A model generated the notes under the pieces. It was given only the letters and a program-made list of their open reading frames with translations, had not been told where the DNA came from and did not search any database. This document shows positions 2,776 through 47,831 of a DNA stretch of 64,000 nt, piece by piece. The stretch lies in NCBI GenBank assembly GCA_048539495.1, contig JBLYPS010000008.1:837-64836 (forward strand). The letters are read 5' to 3'. The position numbers and the translations under genes are program-made. The DNA is from Dehalococcoidia bacterium (GTDB lineage Bacteria; Chloroflexota; Dehalococcoidia; SZUA-161; SpSt-899). Each line of letters begins with the position of its first letter. Within the stretch, counting starts at the first letter, position 1.

Positions 2776-2789
2776 TTGAGGGGCCGGCA

Positions 2790-2972
2790 TTAATCACGGT
2801 TGTCTGGGGGAAGGAGATTCGGGATGGTATCCTTGATGGGATAGCGCTCTGAGCAGTTGGCGCAGTAGAGAGAGCCGCTAATCACCTCCTTATCATCCTC
2901 CTCCTCGACAGTGAGTTCGAGAGAGCTCTTGCACATCGGACAGGCTAGTATCTCCATGAGTTCCTTTTTCAT
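2790..2972 (-). CDS. Trm112 family protein
   Basis: MKKELMEILACPMCKSSLEL...LYCANC is the Trm112 zinc-ribbon signature. The ORF track extends 45 nt further upstream, but the internal Met fits the family's length. Confidence 0.75.
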   Translation of the reverse strand: MKKELMEILACPMCKSSLELTVEEEDDKEVISGSLYCANCSERYPIKDTIPNLLPPDNRD

Positions 2973-2989
2973 TGTATCACCTTCCATTA

Positions 2990-3215
2990 CTTTCGAGATA
3001 ACTCTTAACCCGAACAAGCCGGAACCAACAAGGCATATTGTCGTTTAAATTCGAAATCCGAAGCACGAAATACTAAACAAATCCCAAATCCCAATGTTCA
3101 AATGTTCAAAACTGCCTCATATTTGGAATTTTGCTATTTGGATTTGTTTAGTGCTTAGAAATTAGGATTTAGGATTTTCCATTTTGCGCAAGACTTTAGA
3201 TTTAAGGGACTACCC
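2990..3215. repeat. composite intergenic repeat (modules 'cccgaacaagccggaaccaa' and 'ttccattttgcgcaagact...agggacta') split by a nested ~147 bp MITE-like palindromic insert at 3031-3177
   Basis: Both modules recur contiguously at 4538-4610. The insert has inverted termini aaatcccaaatcc ... ggatttaggattt. Confidence 0.7.
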
Positions 3216-4526
3216 ATTCATCTCCACATTTACCGGGCAGACCCCACATCTTTGCTCCTGACAGAAGGTCTGGTAGAGATGAATCAATCCCTGCTGGCGT
3301 CGCGCCGAGTATAGCCCCTTTGGCTTCCCCGCACCCCAGAAAAGCTCGCTCAGGTACCGGGTTATCCGATTTTCGCCCAGCCGGGGATAGGCTCTATATA
3401 GCTCCACGACATGCTCACTGAGCTTCGGCTGTGAATCGGTCTCCGCCCAGGCGAGGGAAAATGGCAAAACCACATTCACCGTGATCTCCCGTGCCCGCCC
3501 TCGCCCGATGAGGTCGGGGATCAGAAAGCCGGACTCAATCACGGTTGCGCCTTTCCCCGGATTTGCCCGCCTTACGAGATCGAACACCCCCTTGAGCAAG
3601 CCTTGATCCAGATAGCGGTCGAAGAGATGTCCCGCTGCCAGGAGTCGCCGCGAGGGGAAATTCCTGGGATGTATCCGGAAGAAGTGCCAGTCGGCGTAGC
3701 TCATGGCGTTTTCGGCATTCAAGGAACACCAGATTGCCCCCAGCTCCGATGGCGGCTTCAAACCCCCAAATCTGGACTTCTCCCCGCATTGCGAAGGCAG
3801 CAATCCTGCCCCACCCAGAAGCAGAGCCTGGAGCGCAAGGCTTCTGTTCCCGAGCTCCTGTTCCGCCGCAATACTCGCCAAAACGCGGAGTGGCAGGCGG
3901 CGCGCTAGCTCCTGAAAGGACTTCTTATTCTTCGTATATCCGAGAGCCCCCATCACGCCCTGGTACAGGACCTCAGCCGGCTCATCGAGGATCAAACCCA
4001 CCTCAAAGAAAGCCGACTTCAAATAGAACCGCTCCTCACCACACCGATCCAGGATTTCGCCGATTCTTCCTTCTCCGTACTGACTCCCAACGCTGCGGCA
4101 GGGGGAAAGGAGATCCATCGCTCGGACGGAAAGCTCATCCATTGGGCCATTGAGGTAGTTGTGCAGCGGTAAGGTGGGGGCCAACTCCCCGTTTTCAAGT
4201 TGAGCGGGCTTCCTGGTATCGTCCCACAACACCACCTGGAGAATCACCCCGTTGAAATGCGGATCGAGGTGGTGGCCATGTGCCCTCCAGTCGCCCGACT
4301 TCACATGAAGTTCAACATCGCCCTGTAGTATCTCGTCATCGAGAATGATAATGGCTCCGAGAAAATCGGGGCCGCTATCCCTGTTCTCTATCCCGGGCGA
4401 GCGCACCCTCACCATCCGGCCATCACTCGTAGGAAGGGCGCCCTTCTGCACCCATTGACCCTTCCAGATTCTGGCCAGGAGGCTCTCGGGAACTACGGAT
4501 TTATTCTCTGGATTGATACCGGTCAC
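3210..4526 (-). CDS. DUF2851 family protein
   Basis: 438 aa. The N-terminal region (RIWKGQ...GRMVRVRSPGIENRDSGPDF...HVKSGDWRAHGHH) matches my recollection of the DUF2851 family pattern. Confidence 0.55.
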   Translation of the reverse strand: MTGINPENKSVVPESLLARIWKGQWVQKGALPTSDGRMVRVRSPGIENRDSGPDFLGAIIILDDEILQGDVELHVKSGDWRAHGHHLDPHFNGVILQVVLWDDTRKPAQLENGELAPTLPLHNYLNGPMDELSVRAMDLLSPCRSVGSQYGEGRIGEILDRCGEERFYLKSAFFEVGLILDEPAEVLYQGVMGALGYTKNKKSFQELARRLPLRVLASIAAEQELGNRSLALQALLLGGAGLLPSQCGEKSRFGGLKPPSELGAIWCSLNAENAMSYADWHFFRIHPRNFPSRRLLAAGHLFDRYLDQGLLKGVFDLVRRANPGKGATVIESGFLIPDLIGRGRAREITVNVVLPFSLAWAETDSQPKLSEHVVELYRAYPRLGENRITRYLSELFWGAGKPKGLYSARRQQGLIHLYQTFCQEQRCGVCPVNVEMNG

Positions 4527-4534
4527 AACTCATA

Positions 4535-4720
4535 TCCCCCTAACCCGAACAAGCCGGAACCAAAAAGTTTTCCATTTTGCGCAAGACTTCACTTTTTAGG
4601 GACTAACCCGGACAAGAAAATTGCCTCAATTGCCTTGAATTCAAAGAGTGCCGCAAGAGTTCAAAAATTGCCAAGAGTTCAAAAACTGCCTTAATTCACT
4701 TCCAATGCTTCCTCAAATCA
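4535..4720. repeat. intergenic repeat copy (same modules as 2990-3215, uninterrupted, plus 'gttcaaaaa(c/t)tgcc' direct repeats)
   Basis: Direct sequence identity with 3000-3030 and 3176-3215. The 'caagagttcaaaaattgcc' motif is repeated. Confidence 0.7.
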
Positions 4721-4759
4721 GGGCAAATTTTGAAATCTTTGAAAATTAGGCAATTCGCT

Positions 4760-5971
4760 CTATCCCTCCCTGGCATAGCGAACGATCTCCCTGAGAGCCG
4801 GCCTCTTGCCATACATCAGCAAGAATACTCGAAAGACCCTGGCTACAAACCAGACCCCGGCAGCAATGGATCCCACCATGATGGTCAGACTCAGGGCCAA
4901 TTCCCAGAGGGGAATGGTGGTGTTGGGGAGGCGCATCATCACCGTCATAGGGGCGGTGAGGGGAATAAAGGTCAGTATTCTGGCGAGGAGCCCATCGGGG
5001 TGCATAAGGATTGCATCGGACAGCCACATCGGCACTAGCGCCGGCACGATGAAGACGCCCGTCCATTGCTCACTTTCGCTGGCCGTCGAGCCGATACAAC
5101 CCACACCGGCAGAGAGAACGGCGAACAGCAGATAACCGAGTATGAAGTAGAGCAACCCCAGGGCCAGCATGCTCGTGGGAATGGCAAGATCGCCCAGTAC
5201 GGGTATACGTATCACCCCCACATCGGCAAATATCCTGATGGTCACCAGCCACACCACCATCTGCAGCAGGCCGGCGGAGCCCAGCCCCAGTAGCTTCCCC
5301 AGGAACAACTGCCTGGCGGAAATGGAGGAAAGCAAGATCTCGATTACCCGGTTCTCCTTCTCCTCGGAGACGCTCTGCAGCATACGTCCGGAGTTGGAGA
5401 ATATCGAGATCATGAAGAGGAACCCAAAGATAAAGGGCACAATAAACGCTACCGCCGGATGCGGCACCTGGACGATCTGCCCGGTCTCGTCCAGTTGTAG
5501 GGAGACCAGCATTAGCGGCTCTTTTATTCGTTGAACCAGTTCCTCGCTGACCCTACCCGCCAGAAGGTTGCTCAACAGAAAATCGCTGATCTGCTTCCTG
5601 GTTACTGGTGAGGGCACGATCTCGCGCTCCATGGTGAATCTGACCACCTGTCCGGTAACCAGGTAATCCGGAGGGATAATGAAAAACTCGTCGATCTCCC
5701 CGGCCAGGAGGGCATCTCTGGCCTCAGTCTCGGTGGGGTAAAGGATAAAGGTGAGGCCGGGCTGTCCGGTGTAATTGGTGAAGATTCCAGTGTGGTCCAC
5801 ATAGCCAATCCTCTCTGGTAATTCCGGCTCTGGAAAGAGATCCACGACGAACTGATAACCGAGCATCCCGATGAGCGCTATCAGGGGGATAGCGGCAGTC
5901 AGGATAAGGAAGGACTTCCTTTTGATGGCCTGCCGGAACTCGTGCTTTAAGATGATGAGCGTCTTGTTCAT
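4760..5971 (-). CDS. ABC transporter permease (ABC-2 family)
   Basis: 403 aa with an N-terminal TM helix, a large periplasmic loop, and a C-terminal cluster of about 5 TM helices. Its start overlaps the stop of the upstream ATPase gene (5971). Confidence 0.75.
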   Translation of the reverse strand: MNKTLIILKHEFRQAIKRKSFLILTAAIPLIALIGMLGYQFVVDLFPEPELPERIGYVDHTGIFTNYTGQPGLTFILYPTETEARDALLAGEIDEFFIIPPDYLVTGQVVRFTMEREIVPSPVTRKQISDFLLSNLLAGRVSEELVQRIKEPLMLVSLQLDETGQIVQVPHPAVAFIVPFIFGFLFMISIFSNSGRMLQSVSEEKENRVIEILLSSISARQLFLGKLLGLGSAGLLQMVVWLVTIRIFADVGVIRIPVLGDLAIPTSMLALGLLYFILGYLLFAVLSAGVGCIGSTASESEQWTGVFIVPALVPMWLSDAILMHPDGLLARILTFIPLTAPMTVMMRLPNTTIPLWELALSLTIMVGSIAAGVWFVARVFRVFLLMYGKRPALREIVRYAREG

Positions 5972-7035
5972 TACTCCTCCTTCACTACCTGGATGAATAT
6001 CTCGTTGAGCGATGGGGTGGAAACCTCGAATCGGTCAACGGTGATGCCCCGGGCCAGAAGCTGGCTCAGTATCTCTTGCGAAGATATTTTCCCATCCAAG
6101 AACAGCTCCACGAACTTGCCGTGATTTTTCTTCCCCGTCACACCAACCAGTCCCTCGATGGAGCCATCGCATTCGAGGAAGATAGAGTTGTTTCTGAATC
6201 TCGACCTGATCTCAGACAATTCCCCATAGAGCACCGTCTTGCCCTTATTGATCATCAGGATGCGGTCGCAGAGCTCCTCCACCTCGTTCATCTGGTGGGT
6301 GCTGAGGATGATCGTTTTCCCGCGTTGGCGAAGCTCCCGGATCAATTCCTTAAGCATCTCCCTGTTCACCGGGTCGAGCCCGGCGAAGGGCTCGTCCAGT
6401 ATCACCAGATCGGGATTGTGGACGATGGTGGTGACGAATTGAATTAGCTGCCCCATTCCCCGGCTGAGCTGCTCTATCTTCTTGCCCTTATGCGGAAACA
6501 TGCCCACTCGGTGGAGCAGGTTGTCCGTGCCTGACTTTGCCGCGCCGGGGGTGAGGCTCTTGAGTCGAGCCAGATACCCCAGCGATTCGGTGACGGTGAG
6601 CTTGCGGTAGAGCCCCCTCTCCTCCGGCAGGTAGCCGATCCTGTCCTTGGTGCTTTCCCGGAAGGGTTCGCCGAGGATCTTCACCTCGCCGGAATCGGGC
6701 TTGATGATGTCCATGAGCATCCTGATGGTAGTCGTCTTACCGGCGCCGTTGGGCCCGACCATCCCGAATATCTCGCCGGACCTAACCTCGAAGGAGATGT
6801 CGTCCACTACTTCTTTTCTGCCGAAGGATTTATGCACTCCGGAGACCTCGACGGTTTTCGTTTCGAGCAGCATCTTGCTTGGGGATAAACGGGAATCCCA
6901 TTCCAGCGTGGCGGTGATCTCCCTCGAAGTGCTTTGACTTGATCGCTCAGCCCTGCCTCGTCTCCGGCGCTGAAGATACGTGCGCAGAGACAAGACCACC
7001 GCGATGACAACAACAGCGATTATTATCGTATCCAT
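5971..7035 (-). CDS. ABC transporter ATP-binding protein
   Basis: Walker A GPNGAGKTTTIRML, an LSRGMGQ signature-like motif, and Walker B ILDEP. The N-terminal 54 aa form a hydrophobic helix plus an R-rich stretch. The real start may be the internal Met at about 6873. Confidence 0.85.
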   Translation of the reverse strand: MDTIIIAVVVIAVVLSLRTYLQRRRRGRAERSSQSTSREITATLEWDSRLSPSKMLLETKTVEVSGVHKSFGRKEVVDDISFEVRSGEIFGMVGPNGAGKTTTIRMLMDIIKPDSGEVKILGEPFRESTKDRIGYLPEERGLYRKLTVTESLGYLARLKSLTPGAAKSGTDNLLHRVGMFPHKGKKIEQLSRGMGQLIQFVTTIVHNPDLVILDEPFAGLDPVNREMLKELIRELRQRGKTIILSTHQMNEVEELCDRILMINKGKTVLYGELSEIRSRFRNNSIFLECDGSIEGLVGVTGKKNHGKFVELFLDGKISSQEILSQLLARGITVDRFEVSTPSLNEIFIQVVKEE

Positions 7036-7578: not shown

Positions 7579-8128
7579 GTTGCCTCCTCCAGGTCGTCAC
7601 CAGGAGCAGCAGGCCAACAGCGACGAGGAAGAGTGGCCACAGTCTGTCCCAGCGGAACCACCAGAAAAAGTTAAAATTAGCTGCCAAGAAAAAGAGACCC
7701 ACCACGACGAGGATAATGGCAATGAAGTTGCGACGCCGCCGATGAATCCTGTCCCGCTCTTCAGCCTCCGCTTCCTCCTCGCTAAATGTGGAACGTATCT
7801 CCTCTCCGACTTCGGCAGCGGTCTTCCTCATCTCCTCCACCTCCTCCCCAAATGCGTCACGTATCTTCTTTCCAAGTTCGGCAGCGGTCTTCCTTATCTC
7901 CTCCACATTCTCCCGCACCGTCTCCTTGGGCTGCGCCGTCTTTGAACCCTCCAGCGGAACGACGATAGCCATGATGATGTAGGCCAGGATGCCTATCCCG
8001 TTGGCAAAAACCAGCAGAACCATTACCAGGCGGATCACTGTCGGATCCACACCCAGGTATCTGGCCAGCCCCCCGCACACCCCCCAGATCACCCGGTCGC
8101 TCCGACTGCGATAAAGCCTCCTCTCCAT
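7571..8128 (-). CDS. PspC domain-containing protein
   Basis: The N-terminal LYRSRSDRVIWGVCGGLARYLGVDPTVIRLVMVLL is the PspC domain. There is an internal duplicated acidic segment (EEIRKTAAELGKKIR / EEMRKTAAEVGEEIR) and a C-terminal TM helix. Confidence 0.8.
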   Translation of the reverse strand: MERRLYRSRSDRVIWGVCGGLARYLGVDPTVIRLVMVLLVFANGIGILAYIIMAIVVPLEGSKTAQPKETVRENVEEIRKTAAELGKKIRDAFGEEVEEMRKTAAEVGEEIRSTFSEEEAEAEERDRIHRRRRNFIAIILVVVGLFFLAANFNFFWWFRWDRLWPLFLVAVGLLLLVTTWRRQHG

Positions 8129-8187
8129 AATTCCCCCTTGTCGGTTAGATTAAGGGATAACCCCTATCTCCCATCCCCTAATAATAA

Positions 8188-8238
8188 TAGCATAGATCAA
8201 CCTGCTTTTCCGCTACTTAAGTTCGTGTCCGGACTGAG
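8188..8238. repeat. ~50 bp intergenic repeat (copy 2)
   Basis: See 7165-7220. Confidence 0.75.
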
Positions 8239-8382
8239 TCGTAGCGCGGGAGCTTGCCTCCCGCTTCCTCCAGCCGGGGATGAACCCTGGCTCCCAGCGG
8301 TCTCAATGACCAGGTGTACCGCAGAAAGTCAAGAGCCAAGACCCGACCCCTCCCATTGACTCGTCCTCTCCAAATGTCTAAA

Positions 8383-8455
8383 ATTGAGTAAGGGATAAGG
8401 GATAAGGATTAAGGGATAACCCCTAACCCCTATCTCCTAACCCTTACTCAGTAGA
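8383..8455. repeat. heptanucleotide-based palindromic element (gggataa units / ttatccc arms)
   Basis: taagggataagggataaggattaagggataacccctaacccctatctcctaaccc. A shorter relative sits at 8140-8175. Confidence 0.7.
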
Positions 8456-8462
8456 GATAGAG

Positions 8463-10106
8463 ATGATTAAAGACAAAATCGCCGAGATGCTCAAGCAAAC
8501 TGCTATCAAGGCGCAAGAGGAAGGATTGATCCCTTTCCTAGCTCTGCCCGAGATTCTCCTCGAGCATCCCCAAAAGCCGGAGCATGGCGATTATGCGGCG
8601 ACCATCGCTCTAAAACTGGGCCGGGCAGCCAAAGTCAGGCCTCTCAGCATAGCTGAGGCCCTGGTGAAATTGCTGCCTGCCATCGAGGGAATAGAGAAGG
8701 TCTGGGTGGTCCCACCTGGGTTCATCAATTTCGAGGTTAGGGAGGACTGGCTCCGCCAGCAGGTTGATGAAATCCTGAGCCAGGGTAATCGCTACGGCGA
8801 TTCGGCCTCAGGGCAGGGCTGCCGGGTGCAAGTGGAGTTTGTGAGCGTCAATCCTACCGGGCCACTGCATGTGGGGCATGGTCGGGGAGCGGTTCTGGGC
8901 AGCACCCTGGCCAATGTCCTCAGCGCCGCCGGATACAGCGTGGAGAGGGAGTATTACATTAACGATACCGGGAATCAGATGCAGAACTTCTACGCCTCTC
9001 TCTATGCGCGCTATCGAGAGGTCTTTGGCCTTCCCGCTCAGATACCAGCCGATGGCTATCGCGGAGAGTATATGATTCAGATAGCCCGCCGGATCGCTGC
9101 TGAGAGAGGGGATGTCTTCTTAGAGAGCAAAGAGGACGTAGGCCGGATTGGGGCGGAGATAATAATTGACTCCATCAAGGATGATCTTGATTTCCTGGGC
9201 GTCCAGTTCGACGTCTGGTTCAGTGAGCAAACGCTATATGATTCCGGCAAATTTGAGCGGGTACTGGCGATGATCAAACACGATAACCATGTTGAAGAAA
9301 GGGATGGGGCGCTCTGGTTTGTCTCCACCGGACTTGGCGAGGATAAGGACAACGTCCTGATTCGCTCCACGGGGGCGCCCACTTACTTCGCCTCGGATAT
9401 CGCCTATCACTACAACAAGTTTTTGGAACGCGGCTTTGATAAGGTCATTGACGTTTGGGGAGCCGACCATCAAGGGCACGTCTCCCGGATGAAGGCCGCC
9501 GTCAATGCCCTGGGTGTTTCACCAGAGAGGCTGCAGATAATAATCTCGCAGATGGTCAGTCTCCGCCGCGGCGAGGAGCAAATACGGGTCTCCAAGCGCA
9601 CCGGGGATATCATCACTCTACGGGAGGTGTTAGATGAGGTTGGACCTGATGTCTGTCGCTTCTTCTTTCTGGCGCGGTCGGCGAACAGTCAGATGGACTT
9701 CGATCTGGAACTGGCCAAGAAGGAGTCGATGGACAACCCGGTCTATTATGTCCAATACGGCCATGCTCGCATCACCGGCATCCTGCGACTGGCCGGGGAA
9801 AGGGGAATTGACTACGCAAAGGGCGACGTATCGCTTCTCACCGAGGATGCTGAACTGGGCCTGATCAGGAAATTACTCCTGTTCCCGGAGACCCTGGATT
9901 TGGTGGCCAACAACCTCGAGCCCCACCACCTCCCCCACTATGCCCAGGACCTGGCCACCGCCTTTCACAATTTCTACGAGAAATGCCGGGTCATCACTGA
10001 GGATGAGCCCCTTACCCTGGCCCGGCTGAAGCTGGTGGAGGCAACAAGGATCGTCCTGGCGAGGACACTGCGCCTCATGGGGATGAGTGCACCGGAGCGC
10101 ATGTGA
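8463..10106 (+). CDS. argS: arginine--tRNA ligase
   Basis: 547 aa with the class I HIGH motif region (PTGPLHVGHGRGAVLG) and the ArgRS N-terminal and anticodon-binding domain layout. Confidence 0.9.
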   Translation: MIKDKIAEMLKQTAIKAQEEGLIPFLALPEILLEHPQKPEHGDYAATIALKLGRAAKVRPLSIAEALVKLLPAIEGIEKVWVVPPGFINFEVREDWLRQQVDEILSQGNRYGDSASGQGCRVQVEFVSVNPTGPLHVGHGRGAVLGSTLANVLSAAGYSVEREYYINDTGNQMQNFYASLYARYREVFGLPAQIPADGYRGEYMIQIARRIAAERGDVFLESKEDVGRIGAEIIIDSIKDDLDFLGVQFDVWFSEQTLYDSGKFERVLAMIKHDNHVEERDGALWFVSTGLGEDKDNVLIRSTGAPTYFASDIAYHYNKFLERGFDKVIDVWGADHQGHVSRMKAAVNALGVSPERLQIIISQMVSLRRGEEQIRVSKRTGDIITLREVLDEVGPDVCRFFFLARSANSQMDFDLELAKKESMDNPVYYVQYGHARITGILRLAGERGIDYAKGDVSLLTEDAELGLIRKLLLFPETLDLVANNLEPHHLPHYAQDLATAFHNFYEKCRVITEDEPLTLARLKLVEATRIVLARTLRLMGMSAPERM

Positions 10107-37909: not shown

Positions 37910-39175
37910 GTGTATCAAAGGACTGTTGCGGACAATGGCCTGCGCATCGTAACCAGTAATATGCCTCACATCCGCTCGGTGTGCATCAGCATCTTTGTCG
38001 GTGCTGGTTCCCGCTACGAACCTGCTGAGCAAGCAGGGATCTCTCACTTTGTTGAACACCTCCTATTCAAGGGGACCCAACAGCGAGCAACCACTAAAGA
38101 GATATGCGAGGCTATCGAGGGGATCGGCGGGGTTCTTAATGGCGGTACCGATAAAGAGCTGTCGGTTTACTGGACTAAAGTGGCCCGCCCGCACTTCAGG
38201 ACTGCCCTGGACGTCTTAGCTGATATGATCTGTGGCTCTAAGTTCGATCCCCTTGAGATGGAGAAAGAGCGTCAGGTGATCATCGAGGAGATCAACATGA
38301 GCATGGATTCTCCCCAGCAGAGAGTGAACACGCTCATCGACGAGGTTGTCTGGCCAGACCAGGCTCTTGGGCGAGACGTCGCCGGAAGCAAAGAGATGGT
38401 AACTGCTCTCGCTCCTCAGGCCTTGCGTGGCTATTGGGGACGCCAGTATATCCCCGGCAATGCCGTCGCATCCGTTGCCGGCGACATAAGCCATGATGAG
38501 GTAGTGGCCCAGGTATCCTATATATTCGATGATTGGGCTGGTGAGGGGGCCACCAACTGGATTCCGGCTCGGGATGACCAGGATAAACCCCGCCTCTTAA
38601 CAGAGTTCAGGAAGACGGAGCAAGCTCATCTCTGTCTTGCCTTGCGGGGAGTTTCTAATTCTGATCCCGATCGCTTTGTCTTCGATTTATTGAACATTGT
38701 CCTTGGCGAAGGCATGAGCAGCCGTCTCTTCCTGGAGCTTCGGGAGCGAAAGGGATTGGCGTATGATGTTCACAGCTATGCGAGTCACTTCTTTGATTCT
38801 GGATCGCTGACTGTCTATGCCGGGGTCGAGCCGAAGAACATCGAGGCGGCCATCGAGGTTATCCTGGGTCAACTCTCCCGGTTCAAGGCGGAGGATGTTC
38901 CGGAATCGGAGCTTGTCAAAGCCAAGGAGATGGCCAAGGGTCGTCTGCTGCTTCGCATGGAGGATACCCGGAACGTCTCTGGCTGGATTGGAAGCCAGGA
39001 GCTCTTGACCGGGGAGATCAAGACTGTGGATGATGTGGTCTCCATAGTTGATGCTATCACCGCAGATGATATCCGGAGGGTGTCACAGGGCTTATTCCAT
39101 TCTGAGAAATTAAGCCTGGCTATCGTGGGTCCGGTTTCGGATGACATCCGGTTTCAGAAGCTGTTGGTGCTCTGA
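37910..39175 (+). CDS. M16-family zinc peptidase (pitrilysin/insulinase-like)
   Basis: Inverted zinc motif HFVEHLLFKG (HxxEH), with M16 N- and C-terminal domains. Confidence 0.85.
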   Translation: MYQRTVADNGLRIVTSNMPHIRSVCISIFVGAGSRYEPAEQAGISHFVEHLLFKGTQQRATTKEICEAIEGIGGVLNGGTDKELSVYWTKVARPHFRTALDVLADMICGSKFDPLEMEKERQVIIEEINMSMDSPQQRVNTLIDEVVWPDQALGRDVAGSKEMVTALAPQALRGYWGRQYIPGNAVASVAGDISHDEVVAQVSYIFDDWAGEGATNWIPARDDQDKPRLLTEFRKTEQAHLCLALRGVSNSDPDRFVFDLLNIVLGEGMSSRLFLELRERKGLAYDVHSYASHFFDSGSLTVYAGVEPKNIEAAIEVILGQLSRFKAEDVPESELVKAKEMAKGRLLLRMEDTRNVSGWIGSQELLTGEIKTVDDVVSIVDAITADDIRRVSQGLFHSEKLSLAIVGPVSDDIRFQKLLVL

Positions 39176-39178
39176 CAG

Positions 39179-39243
39179 CGAGTCCAGAGTCCAGAGTCAC
39201 GGGGAGGGGGACTCCAGACTCCAGACTCCAGACTCCAGACTAC
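39179..39243. repeat. family A palindromic element (intergenic)
   Basis: gagtccagagtccagagtcacggggagggggactccagactccagactccagactccagact. Confidence 0.85.
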
Positions 39244-39247
39244 CTTT

Positions 39248-40870
<1,623 letters not shown>

Positions 40871-41173
40871 TTACTTCTTTCTTTTGGCCTGGATGTCGCT
40901 TTCCCGAAGGATGAGATACTCCTCATCCTCATATTTCCACTCCGTCCCGGCGTATTTGGCGTAGATCACCATATCGCCCTTCGCAACATCCATTGGAATA
41001 CGCTTGCTCCCATCTTCGGAAAGCCTGCCAGGTCCGACCGCTACCACTTTTCCTTCCTGTGGTTTCTCCTTGGCAGTGTCCGGGAGCACGATGCCCCCCT
41101 TCGTTACCTCCTCGCGGATTTGTGGCTTCACGATCACCCGATCAGCCAGTGGGGTAACATTCAGTGCCATCAA
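40871..41173 (-). CDS. groS: co-chaperonin GroES
   Basis: [14 protein letters not shown]...[23 protein letters not shown], about 98 aa, directly upstream of groL. Confidence 0.95.
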
Positions 41174-41192
41174 TCACCTCCATCCTAAATTT

Positions 41193-41219
41193 GGGAAAAT
41201 TAGCACTCTCTGCCCGAGA
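41193..41219. promoter_or_regulatory. CIRCE operator (HrcA binding site) upstream of groES
   Basis: ttagcactc-tctgcccga-gagtgctaa is a perfect match to the TTAGCACTC-N9-GAGTGCTAA consensus, about 20 nt upstream of the groES start. Confidence 0.9.
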
Positions 41220-41424
41220 GTGCTAATTATTTATATCATACTCAGCGGGCGTTTGTCAAGGGGGCGTTAAGTTGATAACCCTTATCACCTCTTCCTTGGT
41301 CATCACTGTTGGCAATCGTCTGGACCTCCCGGCACGGAGTCGATGAAATCCTCCATCTGTTTGTTGAGCACATCGCGAAAAAGAAACAGCAAAGCATTGA
41401 AAGCCTGATTCTGCATTTTTGCCC

Positions 41425-41453
41425 TTGACTACTTGGTGCAGATTGTGTAGTAT
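41425..41453 (+). promoter_or_regulatory. sigma70-like promoter (TTGACT-17 nt-TAGTAT) facing higBA
   Basis: ttgactacttggtgcagattgtgtagtat, with a 17-nt spacer, about 110 nt upstream of higB. Confidence 0.5.
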
Positions 41454-41566
41454 ATTGATAATCTATCAAAGGATTTCCCAAGACGTAACAGTTATTGTGA
41501 TATACGGCGTTTTTGCGGTCTAGTTAATTGATAGGCGAACTCAGCCCCCGTGTTGACAATCGTCAC

Positions 41567-41869
41567 ATGACAGGTTGCACTTCATGTGTGATCAAGACAT
41601 TCGCAGACAGGCACACGCAGGAACTGTACGCGACTGGTAGGTCGAAACGGTTCCCGCCGGACATCGCGCGACGGGCGAGGCGGAAGCTTGAGTACATCGA
41701 CTTGGCAACGCGCCTAGATGAACTTAAGGTTCCTCCCGGCAATCGACTCCACCAGCTTGGGCAGCACCGGGAGGGGCAGCACGCCATCTCTATCAACGAC
41801 CAATGGCGCATCTGCTTCCGGTTCGTCGATGGTGATGCCTACGAGGTCGAGGTCACAGACTATCACTGA
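41567..41869 (+). CDS. higB: type II toxin, HigB family (plasmid-maintenance killer protein)
   Basis: VIKTFADRHTQELYATG...FPPDIARRARRKLEYI...RLHQL...WRICFRF is the HigB-like toxin pattern. It sits upstream of an XRE-HTH antitoxin. Confidence 0.75.
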   Translation: MTGCTSCVIKTFADRHTQELYATGRSKRFPPDIARRARRKLEYIDLATRLDELKVPPGNRLHQLGQHREGQHAISINDQWRICFRFVDGDAYEVEVTDYH

Positions 41870-41882
41870 GACGAGGTGTGAC

Positions 41883-42197
41883 ATGAGCATTCCAAACACG
41901 GGGAACAGGGAGGTCCGGCCCGCCCATCCCGGCGAGATGCTTCGGGAGGATTTCCTGCCCGACTACGGGCTCACGGTCTCCGGTCTTGCTGAGGCGTTGG
42001 GCGTCTCGCGTCAGACGGTCAACGAGCTGCTCCGCGAGCGTCGGGCGGTGAGTCCGGAAATGGCGCTCCGGCTCTCGCGGCTGTTCAGAAACTCTCCCGA
42101 GTTCTGGCTCAACGCGCAACGCGCGGTGGACCTATGGGACGCAGCCCAGACCGTCGGGACCGACGTCGAGCGCATCAAGCCCTTGATCGTCGCATAA
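41883..42197 (+). CDS. higA: HigA-family antitoxin (XRE-type HTH)
   Basis: HPGEMLREDFLPDYGLTVSGLAEALGVSRQTVNELL is the HigA HTH signature. It starts 14 nt after the higB stop. Confidence 0.8.
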   Translation: MSIPNTGNREVRPAHPGEMLREDFLPDYGLTVSGLAEALGVSRQTVNELLRERRAVSPEMALRLSRLFRNSPEFWLNAQRAVDLWDAAQTVGTDVERIKPLIVA

Positions 42198-42246
42198 CAA
42201 CGGCATACACGCGGACGGGGATTCCGCTTACGCTTCCTCCCCGCCG

Positions 42247-43122
42247 GTGAACCGGAGCGATAGGCGACGCTGCGTCAAGGAGAGCGGACTCATGAACCTA
42301 GACATCGTCTTGATCGACCTGCTGACTCCAGAGGGAGTCCTCACCACGTACAAGATCTGTCCGAAGGGCGGACCAAGGGGGCTCACGATCAATCGGTACC
42401 GGGACGTTTTCCCTGAACGGTTCAGTGACGACGACCTAGAGATTGGAGGTACGCGACTGTACAGCGCATCCAGTTGCTCGATAGAAAAACTCGCCTCTCG
42501 GTTGAGGTCGTTCCGCCTGGACGAGTGCAGTCACTCCTTTTCGTTTCAATTCGAGCACATGGGGGTTCCGGTTGGGCCATCGAGGGAAGCGCACGGCGGC
42601 ATGTACAACTTCGTGTTACCACCCGGTTGGCGCTGCCGCGAGCTGTATGTCTCAGATCCTTACGATCGGAAGTACGATGATGTCAGGAAGAAGAAGCACT
42701 TCCAGCACTCAGTGCTCTGGGATCCCGAGTGCTCCACACAACTCGTCGAGATGCTGCTCCGATCAAGTCGTGGCTCGTCCTCCTTCATCGTCGCGGGCTC
42801 GGCATCGCTTGTGGCAGGCGATCCGCCCGACACGCCGTACGTTGCTTCACAGGAAAGTAGCTGGCCCAGTTCGCGAGTATCGGACACATATCTGCTCGAC
42901 TCAGAGGGCCGTAATCGCCTCGCAGACGAATTGGCGGAGAAGTCCGACTGGCTTGAGCTCAAGCCCAACATCTTTGGCTTGGGCGTCAATCCCAACCAAA
43001 TGATAAAATACGCCATTCGCCATTTCCAGGAGAAGGTCAGACCACGCGAACATGCAGGTAGGGCATCGCCTAACACCGGGTTGCAGCCGACGTTGCTCCG
43101 CTACGCTCCGCGACGCGGCTGA
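42247..43122 (+). CDS. hypothetical protein (no recognisable domain)
   Basis: 291 aa, hydrophilic and Cys-rich, GC-rich codon usage consistent with the neighbouring island genes. An alternative start is the Met at 42292. Confidence 0.45.
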   Translation: MNRSDRRRCVKESGLMNLDIVLIDLLTPEGVLTTYKICPKGGPRGLTINRYRDVFPERFSDDDLEIGGTRLYSASSCSIEKLASRLRSFRLDECSHSFSFQFEHMGVPVGPSREAHGGMYNFVLPPGWRCRELYVSDPYDRKYDDVRKKKHFQHSVLWDPECSTQLVEMLLRSSRGSSSFIVAGSASLVAGDPPDTPYVASQESSWPSSRVSDTYLLDSEGRNRLADELAEKSDWLELKPNIFGLGVNPNQMIKYAIRHFQEKVRPREHAGRASPNTGLQPTLLRYAPRRG

Positions 43123-43153
43123 ACCCGACGGTTAGGCCGGAAAGGGTGGCCAC

Positions 43154-43954
43154 ATGCAAGTTGAAAGTTTCCAATACCGGGACCCGACGGTCCGATCCGT
43201 TCGAATGAGCCGACGGGCTCTTCTTCAGAGGCTCTGCAACCCGCCTCAAGAGGGCAGATGGTTGCTTGCAATTGATCCCGATACATTGGTTGCAAGCATC
43301 GTCGTTCAGAGACCCGATGGGTTCGTCCCAGACGTGCAGGGACACGAAGATCTTTTCCCACTCCTGATGGCAATCGAGCGGCAGGATGGTTTCATTCAGG
43401 GCGGAGACTGGCTCGTAGCGAGCACACCGGCCAAGCGTGAAAGCGACGGCATTTATCGGAGCTATCGGGTTGAATGGGATGATCCGAACCCGGTCATCAT
43501 GGACCCAGGAATCCCGGTCCCTCACACTGGAGCGCTACGGGTCTTCTTGTGCCACGCATCGCAAGATAAGCCTCGAGTACGCGAGCTTTACGAACAAATT
43601 CTGCGATGGGGATACCGTCCCTGGCTCGATGAAGAGAAAATACTTCCAGGTCAGGACTGGAAGGCGGAAATCCGAAAAGCGATTACGGGCACATATGTGG
43701 TGGTCGTTTGCCTCTCACGCAAGGCCACAACGAAAGCAGGTTTCGTTCAAGCGGAGATCGCGCATGCTCTGGATGTCGCAGATGAGCAGTCTGACGGGAC
43801 TATCTTCATCGTACCCCTTCGGCTTGAGGATTGCCGAGTCCCCGATCGGCTTCAGAGATGGCAGTGGGTGGACTTTTTTGGAGAGAAGGGACCAGACCTG
43901 TTTCAGTATGCTCTCAGGACGCGCGCAGCGACCCTTGATTTCGACAATGACTGA
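43154..43954 (+). CDS. TIR-domain protein with an unknown N-terminal domain
   Basis: The C-terminal ~140 aa read RVFLCHASQDKPRVRELYEQILRWGYRPWLDEEKILPGQDWKAEIRKAI...YVVVVCLSRKATTKAGFVQAEIAHALD...IVPLRLEDC. This is the bacterial TIR layout (FxSY/HxxxD, WxDxxxxxPGxxW, SxxxxxSxWxxxEl). The N-terminal ~130 aa match nothing I recognise. Confidence 0.75.
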   Translation: MQVESFQYRDPTVRSVRMSRRALLQRLCNPPQEGRWLLAIDPDTLVASIVVQRPDGFVPDVQGHEDLFPLLMAIERQDGFIQGGDWLVASTPAKRESDGIYRSYRVEWDDPNPVIMDPGIPVPHTGALRVFLCHASQDKPRVRELYEQILRWGYRPWLDEEKILPGQDWKAEIRKAITGTYVVVVCLSRKATTKAGFVQAEIAHALDVADEQSDGTIFIVPLRLEDCRVPDRLQRWQWVDFFGEKGPDLFQYALRTRAATLDFDND

Positions 43955-44186
43955 CATTTGGAATTGGCCTAACAAAGCGCTCCACACGAACTGCCGCTCC
44001 GGTCTCGGCTTCGGCCTGAGCGTCGGGCATTTCGACACTGGTCGGCCTGATCACTTCTTCGCCAAGGCGGCGGTCGGTGAGCTGTGTCGTTGGACGGCGT
44101 GCCATGCATCACCAGCACCGCAACGACCCCATCCACATATCCCGCATTGCTTGCTTGTCTTTCAATTCAGGGTACAATGAGGGTCA

Positions 44187-44420
44187 ATGCGCTTTGAGAT
44201 TATCAGTGAAATCATACACGTCGAAACCATCGCCGTCGGCTCGTCCATTCGCGAGATTACACGTTTACGAAAACGTTACGGCAAGGGGCGCTGGCGGAAG
44301 ATGAAAGGCGTGGCGACCATCCAGTTAGCGAATGGCAAAGTTCGGTTGACAGAAATCCACTGGTACGAAGCGCACGGAATTGGCAAGAAGGAGTACAAGC
44401 GGAAACGCTATTTGGACTAA
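44187..44420 (+). CDS. small basic hypothetical protein
   Basis: 77 aa, Lys/Arg-rich C-terminus (HWYEAHGIGKKEYKRKRYLD). Forms a tight pair with the next small ORF, a TA-like arrangement. Confidence 0.35.
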   Translation: MRFEIISEIIHVETIAVGSSIREITRLRKRYGKGRWRKMKGVATIQLANGKVRLTEIHWYEAHGIGKKEYKRKRYLD

Positions 44421-44431
44421 GGTTAAGGGCA

Positions 44432-44689
44432 ATGAAATCCGTCAAATCACTTCCGGGCAAGTTTGCAATCTGTGTCAATAACGCCGACTATCCCGTCTCG
44501 CTGGAACTGCACAAGCTCTATGGCCTGGTGCCAGATGAGGAGGCCGAGCGAGATGGCGACTTGCGCGTGATTGACGAAAGCGGCGAAGACTATTTGTATC
44601 CAGCGGAGTATTTTCTGGTGGTGGAATTCCCTCAGACGATACAACAGGCATTACAAACGTCTTTCGCACGCACAGTGCAACCCGCGTAA
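44432..44689 (+). CDS. small acidic hypothetical protein
   Basis: 85 aa, acidic (DEEAERDGDLRVIDESGEDYLY). Starts 12 nt after the previous ORF. Confidence 0.35.
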   Translation: MKSVKSLPGKFAICVNNADYPVSLELHKLYGLVPDEEAERDGDLRVIDESGEDYLYPAEYFLVVEFPQTIQQALQTSFARTVQPA

Positions 44690-44784
44690 GCGTCAAATCC
44701 AGGCACGCGGTCCAACACGGCATGCGGCCGACCGCTTCGCGCTGCGCCCTCGCCGCGGCTGATGCCCACGTTAGGCGACGCGGT

Positions 44785-46230
44785 ATGAACCCTTTCTTGC
44801 CAAGCCCTATGATGGAATCGATCTCCGACTATACTCTTGAAAGATTCTCGCGAGCGGTCACGCTCACAGTTCTCGAACTGGACGTAGACCGCCATGCACT
44901 CGTTCCCGCCTACCTCATAGCCAACCTCATGTCGCCAGCTTTGTGGAGATGGCGGGAAGAGCGCAGAGCCTGCGCTCGGAATGGGCAGCTCTTGGGCGCG
45001 AACCGCCGTCTCAAGGAGCTCGAAAGACACTTCCACCGATACACATTCACGCACTTCGCAGACCAGCCAGGCGGCGATCCGTGGGGCTTACTCAGCTTCT
45101 CAGACGAAGAACAGCGTCTCGGGAGCGAGTACGTTCGACATGCGCGGCAGGAGTACGACGAGACGCTTAAGGGCCTGCTGAGGCAGAACCCTGATAGCCA
45201 GTTCGGGCAGATCGTCAAGCAGGATTACTATGAGCGTGGATACTTCCCACGGCTGAGGAATGAGACCCTCGAGGTAATGGACGCGTATTCCACCATTTCG
45301 GACGACGGCAGAGGCTCGGGCAAGTGTGCCGCACTCGCAATGCTTTGGGCAGCCGCGCTTATGGTTTGGGGCCGCTTCCCTCCTGAGAGAATCGCACTGA
45401 TAGGGAACCGTGCCCACGTATTCGTGTTCCTCGATGAGGATAATGGTCACCTCTTCAACAACACAAAGTGGTTCAGTCGGACAAGAATCCACAACGCGTC
45501 GGAGCTCTCCGAGTTCGTGAAGATGGTTACGACCGGCACGAGCACAACGTTCTTCTACTGCCCATCCCTCGGAATGTGCCAGTGTTCAGAGAGGAAATCG
45601 ACGATCCCGTGCGATCACTTAGTGGAGTTGTACCGCCATGTTCGAGACTTCCTCTCGGTTCCCCTGAGGCACCCGGACCCGGCGAACATCTGCTTCGAGG
45701 GAGTATCTGATCCCATTCCGCTCCCATCCGCGTACACCTCAGCCCAGGACTATCGTGATGCCGTCTGGGCCTTGGCGGATCGTCGCCCGGAGTCGGTCTA
45801 CGACTTGGCTCGGTATGCATACCGGTCGCTGGATGTGCCTGCGCCCGCGGTATACGCTCGGGCCGCTCTTCGTGACTATCATGCCCAGGACGCAGCGCGG
45901 CGCATCGGAGATCTCGAAGGGGCCATAGAGTTCGTAAGGAGGATACCCGGACGCCGTTCCGTATTCGACAGCAGAGAACGTATCCAGCTGCCTGACGAGA
46001 CGTTGGCCTTCCGAACAGGCGATGACAGCGACAGGGCACTGCTTCTGTTCACCTTACTTTCGCACTCCTGTGGGCAGTCATCTCGGGTCGGGGTCGCCTT
46101 GACCGATGATGCCAGCTATGTGCGTTTCGAGGGGCTCTGGGTAAATGCTGGTACGCTGTCGGTCGAGTCCCGGACGCCTGAAGGAGTGACCTCTGTGTTC
46201 AACGAGATGGGGAGTTCAGTCGTTTCGTGA
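44785..46230 (+). CDS. large hypothetical protein with a possible transglutaminase-like/papain-like Cys-His-Asp core
   Basis: A GSGKCAALAMLWAAALMVWG segment is followed about 30 aa later by HVFVFLDEDNGHLFNNTKW. That spacing suggests a transglutaminase-like cysteine protease core, but this is uncertain. 482 aa from the Met at 44785; the ORF track starts at 44722. Confidence 0.4.
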   Translation: MNPFLPSPMMESISDYTLERFSRAVTLTVLELDVDRHALVPAYLIANLMSPALWRWREERRACARNGQLLGANRRLKELERHFHRYTFTHFADQPGGDPWGLLSFSDEEQRLGSEYVRHARQEYDETLKGLLRQNPDSQFGQIVKQDYYERGYFPRLRNETLEVMDAYSTISDDGRGSGKCAALAMLWAAALMVWGRFPPERIALIGNRAHVFVFLDEDNGHLFNNTKWFSRTRIHNASELSEFVKMVTTGTSTTFFYCPSLGMCQCSERKSTIPCDHLVELYRHVRDFLSVPLRHPDPANICFEGVSDPIPLPSAYTSAQDYRDAVWALADRRPESVYDLARYAYRSLDVPAPAVYARAALRDYHAQDAARRIGDLEGAIEFVRRIPGRRSVFDSRERIQLPDETLAFRTGDDSDRALLLFTLLSHSCGQSSRVGVALTDDASYVRFEGLWVNAGTLSVESRTPEGVTSVFNEMGSSVVS

Positions 46231-46554
46231 CAACAGGATCGCCTAACAAGTCGCTGTTATGCAAAAAGTGGCTCTCCTCAAATAAGTGGGGATTTTTGCC
46301 CCGGCCCGCCACGCTCAATCAAGACGCAGAGCGGTGATTATCAAAGAAGGGTAACTACAAGCTCGACAAATGAGCTTCTGAATCGTGCCGCTGAGACTCT
46401 CAGTAAAATCATGTGGGGGATACCTTACCCCACTAAGAGCCTCCAAAAAGTCAAGGTTTTTGCGGCTCATATAGCTCACCTGGCAAAGGGAATTGTTGCA
46501 TTTCTCGGCACAGTGTTCTATATTGTTAGCAGTGGGTTAGCCTAAGTCGTTGAG

Positions 46555-46983
46555 TTGATTAATTTATGGGTCAGACAAGATTTCGGAATTAGAAAGAGGA
46601 GAAAGAAGTTGAAACAAAAGTGTTCCAATCCAAAAATGTCAGAGATTTTGTTAGAGTATGCCTCTGATTATATCGGCATGGGAGTAACTTTAGAGGAAAA
46701 AGGGCACTACCTGAATTCAGCTATTATGGCATGGAATCTTTCCCTGTTCCCAGAAGGCGAAAGAGAAAAACAAAAGCAGGCAACTCTAAAAAGGCTCGAA
46801 GAATTGACTCCTGGTTCCAAGAATCTGGAGATTCTAAAACACAATTTGGCTATCTTGATCAAGAAAAAACTAACGCAATTCCCTGAGATTAAGGAGCTAA
46901 TCCTCAACGCAGAAATCAGCATTGTTGACGGCAAAGAGTGTCTATATGTTGCTTCTACTGATTTGCAGGAAACCAATGATTAG
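46555..46983 (+). CDS. hypothetical protein in a very AT-rich patch
   Basis: Lys-rich with low-GC codon usage, unlike its neighbours. The start may be the Met at 46636. Confidence 0.35.
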   Translation: MINLWVRQDFGIRKRRKKLKQKCSNPKMSEILLEYASDYIGMGVTLEEKGHYLNSAIMAWNLSLFPEGEREKQKQATLKRLEELTPGSKNLEILKHNLAILIKKKLTQFPEIKELILNAEISIVDGKECLYVASTDLQETND

Positions 46984-47245
46984 CACAGGGCCAATGGTGA
47001 CATCATCCTGATTTTGGAGAGTCTTATCAAGCGTAGTCCTCAGAGCGTGGGAAAGCCTACTACAAGGGGAAGGACTTGACGGGAGTACGTAGCTCGCAAA
47101 GAGCCTGCCCTGAGCGAAGCCGAAGGGAAACTTATGCCGGACATAGCAGGACCGGAGCAACATAAGCCAAACTCCCTGCGGGGAATAGCAAACAGGTCGG
47201 GAGCCGGCAACGGTTACGACCTGCGCGGAACCGAGTACAACCGAG

Positions 47246-47279
47246 GAACCGGATGCGGGAAAATCGCACGTCCGGGTCT
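47246..47279 (+). ncRNA. group II intron domain V-like motif (probable degenerate intron 3' remnant)
   Basis: GAACCGGATGCGGGAAAATCGCACGTCCGGGTCT resembles the domain V consensus GAGCCGTATGCGATGAAAGTCGCACGTACGGTTCT. It has the same 2-nt AC bulge and helix register, and a hairpin follows. No intron-encoded reverse transcriptase is present. Confidence 0.4.
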
Positions 47280-47365
47280 GTGCGGGGGGCGACGGGTAAC
47301 CGGCGTTCCTACCGCGGCGGCTTGGAGTGAGTGATGAAACAGAGGGTATCATATAGAAGGTTAAC

Positions 47366-47587
47366 ATGAGCGCTATAGAGATGTTACAAACGGGGGAATT
47401 TGTGGTGGATGCCCACGGGAATAGGAGAGCTGTGTTGCTCGATTACAAAGTTTGGGAAGAACTGTTGACCTTGCTTGAAGATTGGGAAGATGCGGAGGAC
47501 ATTCGTCGTCTCCACGAGACCGGAGAGGAGGCAATCCCGTGGGAACAAGCGAAAGCAGAGCTACGAGCTAAGGGGATAGATGTATAG
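47366..47587 (+). CDS. type II antitoxin (Phd/RelB-like partner of the RelE/ParE toxin)
   Basis: 73 aa, acidic, 8 nt overlap with the downstream RelE/ParE toxin. Confidence 0.6.
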   Translation: MSAIEMLQTGEFVVDAHGNRRAVLLDYKVWEELLTLLEDWEDAEDIRRLHETGEEAIPWEQAKAELRAKGIDV

Positions 47588-47831
47588 CGTCTGCATCCTG
47601 CGGGGGGCCATCAAGGACATCGCCGACTTACCTAAGGAGTATGCCCGTTTGGCCAGCGAGCATATTGACCGCTTGCGGGAGAACCCTCGTCCGCCAGGTG
47701 CAAAGAAACTCCGAGGGACGACAGATTACAGTTTACGGGTGGGGGTGTATCGCATTCTCTACGACATAGATGATAGCCCTCGCATTGTCACCGTCTATCG
47801 AGTGAAACATCGGCGCGAAGCCTATCGCTGA
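47580..47831 (+). CDS. RelE/ParE-family type II toxin
   Basis: LPKEYARLASEHIDRLRENPRPPGAKKLRGTTDYSLRVGVYRILYDIDDSPRIVTVYRVKHRREAY is the RelE/ParE pattern. Confidence 0.8.
   Translation: MYSVCILRGAIKDIADLPKEYARLASEHIDRLRENPRPPGAKKLRGTTDYSLRVGVYRILYDIDDSPRIVTVYRVKHRREAYR

Follow-up and report, generated by a model that had tools for sequence, protein, structure and literature searches.

The 64,000-nucleotide stretch analyzed here (the window) comes from a metagenome-assembled genome (MAG) of a Dehalococcoidia bacterium (contig JBLYPS010000008.1, positions 837 to 64,836 of the forward strand). At positions 42247-46230 it contains a block of ~4 kb in which five open reading frames (ORFs), designated A to E, lie co-oriented on the + strand. 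A reading of the sequence alone had placed these genes between a HigB/HigA pair and a RelE/ParE pair, upstream of a type I-C CRISPR-Cas operon, an arrangement borne out by ORF and Pfam analyses. It had also proposed that the five genes form one defense module built around a TIR-domain protein. Our results argue instead that the block is probably a set of four units, A, B, C-D, and E, standing side by side in an accessory island rather than a single system. The genes, and the two parts of B, are as follows.

42292..43122, + strand: gene A, 276 residues, starting with MNLDIV; its ORF reaches upstream to a GTG at 42247 (291 residues)
43154..43954, + strand: gene B, 266 residues, an ORF with a Pfam TIR_2 match
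43154..43537, + strand: N-terminal domain of B (~residues 15-110), with the motifs GHEDLFP, GGDW, and YRSYxIxW
43538..43954, + strand: TIR domain of B, from Pfam TIR_2 and PDB profile matches, with the putative catalytic glutamate E201 (codon 43754-43756)
44187..44420, + strand: gene C, 77 residues, isoelectric point (pI) 10.5 (basic), first gene of the apparently autonomous two-gene C-D cassette
44432..44689, + strand: gene D, 85 residues, pI 4.4 (acidic), second gene of the C-D cassette
44785..46230, + strand: gene E, 481 residues from a methionine at 44785, placed by homologue lengths; its ORF begins at 44722 (502 residues)

On the evidence of sequence homology, all five ORFs are real genes rather than chance ORFs, because A (41 homologue clusters), B (~17 clusters of full-length homologues), D (at least 556 matches in metagenome contigs), and E (at least 158 homologues) all have many relatives. 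Identical proteins in the source MAG are annotated as 'hypothetical protein' or 'TIR domain-containing protein', and the GC content of the block (0.53-0.61) is like that of its flanks. Scans of A, C, D, and E against Pfam, PADLOC, NCBIfam, and PHROGs returned only matches at chance level, the best with an E value of 0.005.

One system or several units

The co-occurrence of these genes was surveyed across ~130 related loci (~0.9 Mb). A tblastn comparison of six query proteins with every fetched locus revealed no A/B, A/E, B/E, C-D/A, or C-D/E co-occurrence, and in none of the other loci among the ~130 do any two of A, B, and E occur together. Full-length homologues of B occur in three other contexts, all rich in toxin-antitoxin (TA) genes or transposons and none containing A or E; the A homologue is solo in nine of the 10 other independent A loci; and E is solo in five other independent contexts, with no TIR gene nearby in any of them. 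We favor four independent units because homologues of A, B, and E thus stand alone elsewhere and only C and D recur as a pair.

The module proposed from the sequence, in which A, C-D, and E would assist the TIR protein of one undescribed defense system by sensing, by regulation, or as co-effectors, does fit the co-orientation and tight packing of the genes within an island of TA and CRISPR loci, and all of the partners belong to uncharacterized families. The survey makes it extremely improbable: homologues of the five genes are essentially never co-localized elsewhere, so that the neighborhood data come close to refuting it, E is found mostly amid metabolic genes, and neither A nor E has a PADLOC match.

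Several observations nevertheless weigh against treating the units as independent. With the window included, B is known from few independent contexts (4), and the numbers for A (11) and E (6) are moderate. Genes A to E could also be co-transcribed in the source genome, since they are co-oriented, the gaps are short (94 nt from HigA to A, 31 nt from A to B, 232 nt from B to C, 11 nt from C to D, and ~95 nt from D to E), and a consensus scan found no convincing terminator inside the block. The remaining points concern the neighbors of B on either side.

Upstream, the 31-nt gap between A and B and the position of one A homologue (65% identity, Acidobacteriota MAG), 137 nt downstream of the gene for a 545-residue TIR_2/SEFIR protein, would suit a two-gene unit in which A is a partner of TIR proteins. 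In that single recurrence, however, the gene order is reversed and the TIR protein is unrelated in architecture. Nine of the 10 other A loci have no TIR in their fetched flanks, as searched with a hidden Markov model (HMM) derived from the B TIR domain and by tblastn with B; Pfam scans of the flanking ORFs in six of these nine likewise found none; and no locus with a B homologue has A. Such a unit is highly improbable, and A behaves, by its distribution, as a stand-alone unit.

Downstream, the case concerns the C-D cassette. D is immediately preceded by a homologue of C in 66 of the best 80 metagenome D loci, mostly with a gap of a few nucleotides, and a B-like TIR gene is the only recurrent neighbor of these cassettes. 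A blastp cluster of such genes is present in 8 of the 80 loci, and the B-derived HMM detects a TIR domain in 6 of the 80 (279 kb), as against 1 locus among a control set of ~26 (~436 kb of non-redundant loci of A, E, and the tail motif described below); this enrichment is confounded by taxonomy, since the C-D loci are those most closely related to a Chloroflexota gene and B-like TIRs were used to build the HMM, and by the tendency of TA and defense genes to cluster in general. As in the window, the TIR gene directly adjoins C-D in loci L061 (21-nt gap, from ORF calls that begin at start codons) and L049 (~12 nt), and the B homologue of locus L009 has a C-D pair 5 kb upstream.

These findings would be explained if B and C-D formed a loose three-gene association, with C-D as a regulator, addiction, or immunity partner preferentially linked to TIR effectors of the B subfamily. 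We judge this to be distinctly unlikely. A TIR is lacking from most of the C-D loci for which flanking sequence exists; where one is present it may be on either side, at a variable distance, and in differing architectures. The TIRs near C-D carry the TIR half only and never the N-terminal domain of B, several of the TIR ORFs are fragments, and in two loci (L047 and L063) other TA pairs intervene.

Gene B, a TIR protein with a rare N-terminal domain

The product of B had been described from the sequence as a 266-residue fusion of an N-terminal domain of no recognized family to a TIR domain, and this description holds. Pfam TIR_2 matches residues 130-244 with a score of 93 bits (cut-off 28; E value 2.4e-26), which places the C-terminal domain inside the TIR fold, and residues 1-129 have no Pfam match. 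Matches to PADLOC and NCBIfam profiles (SPARTA TIR-APAZ, TIR-SAVED, retron-TIR, and ThsB) cover the TIR part only and fall far under the family cut-offs. Glu201, in the sequence GFVQAEI, does not vary among 16 aligned homologues. In a PDB profile search, the SPARTA TIR-APAZ chain 8qlo had the Glu of its 'vlkEi' sequence at this position, and AbTIR and the CRISPR-associated TIR protein Cat1 were also returned. From knowledge of SARM1 and SPARTA, we take this position to be that of the catalytic Glu of TIR NAD+-cleaving enzymes (NADases), in agreement with the role assigned beforehand to the Glu in FVQAEIAHA. By its profile match and conserved Glu, B belongs to the TIR-domain superfamily, and it is predicted to cleave NAD+.

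More than 1,600 TIR proteins, whose partner domains are of every kind, share 55-65% identity with the TIR half of B. The N-terminal domain (N-domain) is rare: 1.84 billion proteins include only 26 representative clusters of it, and it has no PDB sequence match. It lies N-terminal to HEPN in two proteins (P0283 and P0286) and C-terminal to HD_4 in three (P0285, P0289, and P0295). A single small domain with swappable TIR, HEPN, or HD effectors is what one would expect of a sensor or adaptor in conflict systems, and because the N-domain is fused to these three effector types we read it as such. An IMG/VR scan gave no viral copies of the N-domain, and no plasmid copies were found.

Weak matches in multiple stretches also connect the N-domain with large proteins made of repeated immunoglobulin I-set domains (P0297, P0303, and P0306); these may hint at an immunoglobulin-like beta fold or may be noise. 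Among the PDB searches with A, E, C, D, and the B N-domain, matches to YfiA/HPF (E value ~0.2) and ribulokinase (E value 0.08) were judged to have arisen by chance.

The three other contexts of full-length B homologues differ in their content: one (L007) has other TIR genes and an AAA_15/21 protein, the second (L009) a HEPN/MNT pair, and the third (L011) HigB. In the first, three TIR genes stand in a run at positions 2436-6813 (CAP12-PCTIR_TIR, 518 residues; TIR_2, 345 residues; and the B homologue), with a group II intron reverse transcriptase, an insertion sequence (IS) element, and an AAA_15/AAA_21-DUF3696 protein nearby, so that the locus resembles a TIR-rich defense island. In L011/L012, a 60%-identical B homologue has a Peptidase_M16 gene and a HigB-type TA pair within a few genes of it, a layout comparable to positions 37910-43954 of the window. 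This likeness may point to a common accessory-gene hotspot in related genomes.

Several described systems use TIR proteins that resemble B. Like the effectors TIR-SAVED, TIR-STING (CBASS), CARF-TIR Cat1, and TIR-APAZ (SPARTA), B has a TIR_2-type domain with the conserved Glu, and like other single-chain sensor-TIR effectors it has a non-TIR domain on the same polypeptide that presumably controls activation; its best PADLOC and PDB matches are TIR-APAZ, AbTIR, and Cat1. However, the partner domain of B matches none of SAVED, STING, CARF, and APAZ, the whole protein is only 266 residues long, and the block has no cyclase, pAgo, or type III CRISPR partner, the adjacent CRISPR-Cas system being of type I-C.

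The resemblance to Thoeris is likewise that of a small bacterial TIR protein in a defense or TA island. The Pfam ThsB_TIR score of B is under the cut-off (17.9 versus 21.2 bits), and no ThsA-like SIR2, SLOG, or Macro domain is found in A, C, D, or E, or beside the B homologues in their three contexts. For CBASS and Pycsar, no cyclase domain is present in the block and the PADLOC SAVED_TIR match of B involves the TIR part only; for SPARTA, the PADLOC Aga_TIR match is confined to positions 5-117 of a 443-position profile and there is no pAgo-like neighbor. Thus, among the five genes of the block, which were those tested, there is no Thoeris, CBASS, Pycsar, or SPARTA partner, as had been supposed.

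Gene B most likely encodes a self-contained, one-protein sensor-effector, a reading that draws on its architecture and residue conservation. The N-domain would detect a trigger, for example a phage component or a ligand induced by infection. Detection would then let the TIR domains self-associate, and a composite active site around Glu201 would cleave NAD+, with growth arrest, abortive infection, or a nucleotide product as the possible outcome.

Alternatively, B may not be an immune effector at all, and its TIR domain may act as the toxin of an addiction element, as an interaction scaffold, or in NAD-linked signaling unrelated to phage. No phage-related evidence was obtained for B, the searches for viral and plasmid copies of its N-domain came up empty, and the fusion of that domain to HD_4, an HD of the alarmone-hydrolase type, could point to stress signaling. 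We nevertheless regard a non-immune role as unlikely. The putative catalytic Glu is invariant, the closest solved relatives (SPARTA TIR-APAZ, AbTIR, and Cat1) are NADase immune effectors, all of the contexts of B homologues are TA or defense islands, and a swap among TIR, HEPN, and HD effectors is, as a matter of general knowledge, typical of conflict systems.

The C-D pair and genes A and E

Genes C and D had been noted as a small basic and a small acidic protein packed together like a TA pair. Their charges and their conserved pairing sustain this view, but the gap between them is 11 nt, not 12. The conserved motif of D has an invariant core, IDESGEDY, and reads DESGEDYLYP in the window copy. 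The pair occurs on the Thiodictyon plasmid pTs485, amid DarT, DUF433/PIN, and IS elements, and in divergent copies on IMG/VR viral contigs; a scan of IMG/VR with C gave no match. For 11 of 16 D members there is a weak match to phrog_34144, a family without an assigned function. Neither C nor D matched Pfam, NCBIfam, or PADLOC, whether as single sequences or as alignment members (both genes against Pfam, and those of C also against PADLOC), and neither single sequences nor profiles found a PDB match.

Because C and D stay paired on chromosomes, on a plasmid, and in viral contigs, C-D looks like an autonomous and widespread cassette of the TA type that corresponds to no described family, with toxicity and neutralization as its predicted properties. 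As in type II TA systems such as higBA and hicAB, two small co-oriented genes 11 nt apart encode a basic and an acidic protein, and the cassette sits amid other TA pairs. The toxin-first order of higBA would be matched if C is the toxin. Unlike those systems, C-D has no homology to TA families in Pfam, NCBIfam, or PADLOC or to solved structures, and no recognizable DNA-binding domain. The basic C protein would be the active or nucleic acid-binding partner, which the acidic D protein would neutralize.

A further-reaching interpretation would join this cassette to the findings for B. The B N-domain would then define a family of immune sensors, not described before, that work as single proteins and can exchange TIR, HEPN, or HD effectors, and C-D would be a new and very widespread TA-type family that prefers positions beside TIR effectors and modulates them. 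We put this forward tentatively, as rather less likely than the converse.

Gene A had been read as a 291-residue protein lacking any recognizable domain. No significant library match has emerged, in keeping with the second part of this description, but the true start is at 42292, which gives 276 residues: all 32 aligned homologues begin at MNLDIV, and an independent gene call agrees. Helices follow the beta-sandwich core of the protein on its C-terminal side, and the chain closes with a short tail, 'LELKPNIFGLGVNPN', also found on unrelated proteins. Sequence and profile searches of PDB found no relatives of A, an IMG/VR scan returned nothing, and tblastn found nothing in plasmid records. The neighbors of A homologues vary from locus to locus and include transposases, a resolvase, the type I restriction-modification gene HsdM, rlmH, and sugar-nucleotide genes. 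A would therefore be best described as a stand-alone beta-sandwich protein with a C-terminal tail common to many unrelated proteins.

The tail motif, 'ELKPNxFGxGxNLNxII' followed by basic residues, lies at ~42955-43040 and also occurs in loci L030-L044. Its carriers are unrelated proteins of bacteria, candidate phyla radiation (CPR) lineages, and archaea, including an AAA ATPase and a SEC-C plus TPR protein, and in the majority Pfam recognizes no domain. Each locus has a single copy of the motif, always 9-23 residues ahead of the stop codon; in the gene A of the window, which has a longer C-terminus, this distance is 41 residues. Across the tail-motif loci there was no second copy of the motif and no common neighbor gene, and literature searches for this and the other sequence motifs retrieved nothing specific. 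One candidate explanation was an NLR-associated bacterial amyloid signaling pair, in which the same short motif stands at the C-terminus of one protein and at the N-terminus of an adjacent NLR-type protein; it was rejected on the single motif copy per locus and the lack of a common neighbor gene. The tail may serve as a signal for targeting, for cargo, or for membrane binding.

For gene E, the sequence-only reading had given 482 residues with a possible transglutaminase-like core. The core stands, but the length does not. The ORF encodes 502 residues, and its homologues, of ~467-490 residues, align from about residue 30; since they are shorter than the ORF, the methionine at 44785 is the likely start and the protein is likely to have 481 residues. 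The central fold is transglutaminase/papain-like, with a Cys at the N-terminus of a helix and a His on the adjacent beta-strand. Both are invariant (codons 45325-45327 and 45415-45417, respectively), as are the G-K-C and NxxH motifs; the third catalytic residue is ambiguous, either Asp or Asn. No Pfam family, Transglut_core included, was matched at an E value of 0.1 or below, and no sequence relative was found in PDB. E is thus a structural member of the transglutaminase/papain-like superfamily without membership at the profile level.

The closest described counterparts of E are BDI_1141 (3kd4), LapG (4fgo), CPR-C4 (7pjo), and PNGase (2f4o). With such peptidases only ~100-160 of its 481 residues align, and its N-terminal helical and C-terminal alpha/beta regions are unmatched. 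Whereas LapG is periplasmic, E has no obvious N-terminal signal sequence, as judged by eye from its first residues and not with a predictor. E would act as a stand-alone cytoplasmic protease, isopeptidase, or acyl-transferase on a protein substrate. Literature searches for transglutaminase-like defense genes retrieved nothing specific.

Homologues of E, with 48-64% identity, are spread over several phyla that include Zixibacteria, Acidobacteriota, and Phycisphaerae. Its five other contexts place it amid acetyltransferases and arginase, between molybdenum-cofactor genes and a transporter, next to methyltransferase and DUF4198 genes, next to prolyl-tRNA synthetase, and in a Phycisphaeraceae prophage (L003/L004, positions 8001-9458), where a 51%-identical copy, encoded on the opposite strand, is flanked by the portal and large-terminase genes. 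Accessory (moron) cargo genes typically occupy such a slot. Despite this one prophage copy, E is not a typical phage or plasmid gene, because searches of IMG/VR (single sequence and profile) and of phage and plasmid records (tblastn) found none, and a fold search of BFVD returned nothing.

The surrounding island and its significance

Upstream of the block, genes for GroEL and GroES are followed by a HigB-like toxin with its antitoxin and then by gene A. Downstream, a second TA pair precedes the type I-C cas genes, which run from 48162 onward (Cas3, Cas5d, Csd1, Cas7, Cas4, and Cas1).

41567..42197, + strand: HigB-like toxin and helix-turn-helix (HigA-like) antitoxin, upstream flank (Pfam HigB-like_toxin, E value 4.3e-16; HTH_3, E value 3.4e-9)
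46275..46292, + strand: terminator-like hairpin followed by a T-run, 3' of gene E (from a consensus scan only; weak evidence)
47366..47831, + strand: RelB/Phd-like antitoxin and ParE toxin, downstream flank (Pfam ParE_toxin, E value 8.1e-10; RelB-like, E value 2.7e-5, the latter under the Pfam curated cut-off at 24.3 versus 27 bits)

The region between gene E and RelB has features of its own. Rfam RF00029 (group II intron domains V/VI) matches at 47244-47318 on the + strand with 42.9 bits (gathering score 40), and no reverse-transcriptase or maturase ORF is found around it (46231-47365). Just upstream of this match lies an orphan ORF, F (46555-46983, 142 residues, GC 0.40), that has no significant family match in Pfam, PADLOC, NCBIfam, or PHROGs; its best Pfam hit, UpxZ, is just under the cut-off (E value 4.5e-4). 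The RF00029 region is probably a decayed intron remnant.

On present evidence, the block holds several uncharacterized families but no new multi-gene system or new kind of biology. Its analysis removes a false lead, in that the tight packing of these genes within an island did not make them one system. The units also merit attention one by one. Gene B offers a compact model for the triggering of a TIR NADase, through a sensor-like domain that it has in common with HEPN and HD effectors. C-D is an unannotated two-gene cassette with hundreds of environmental copies, E represents a highly conserved family of ~470 residues with a transglutaminase/papain-like fold, and the short C-terminal tail of A is common to unrelated bacterial and archaeal proteins.

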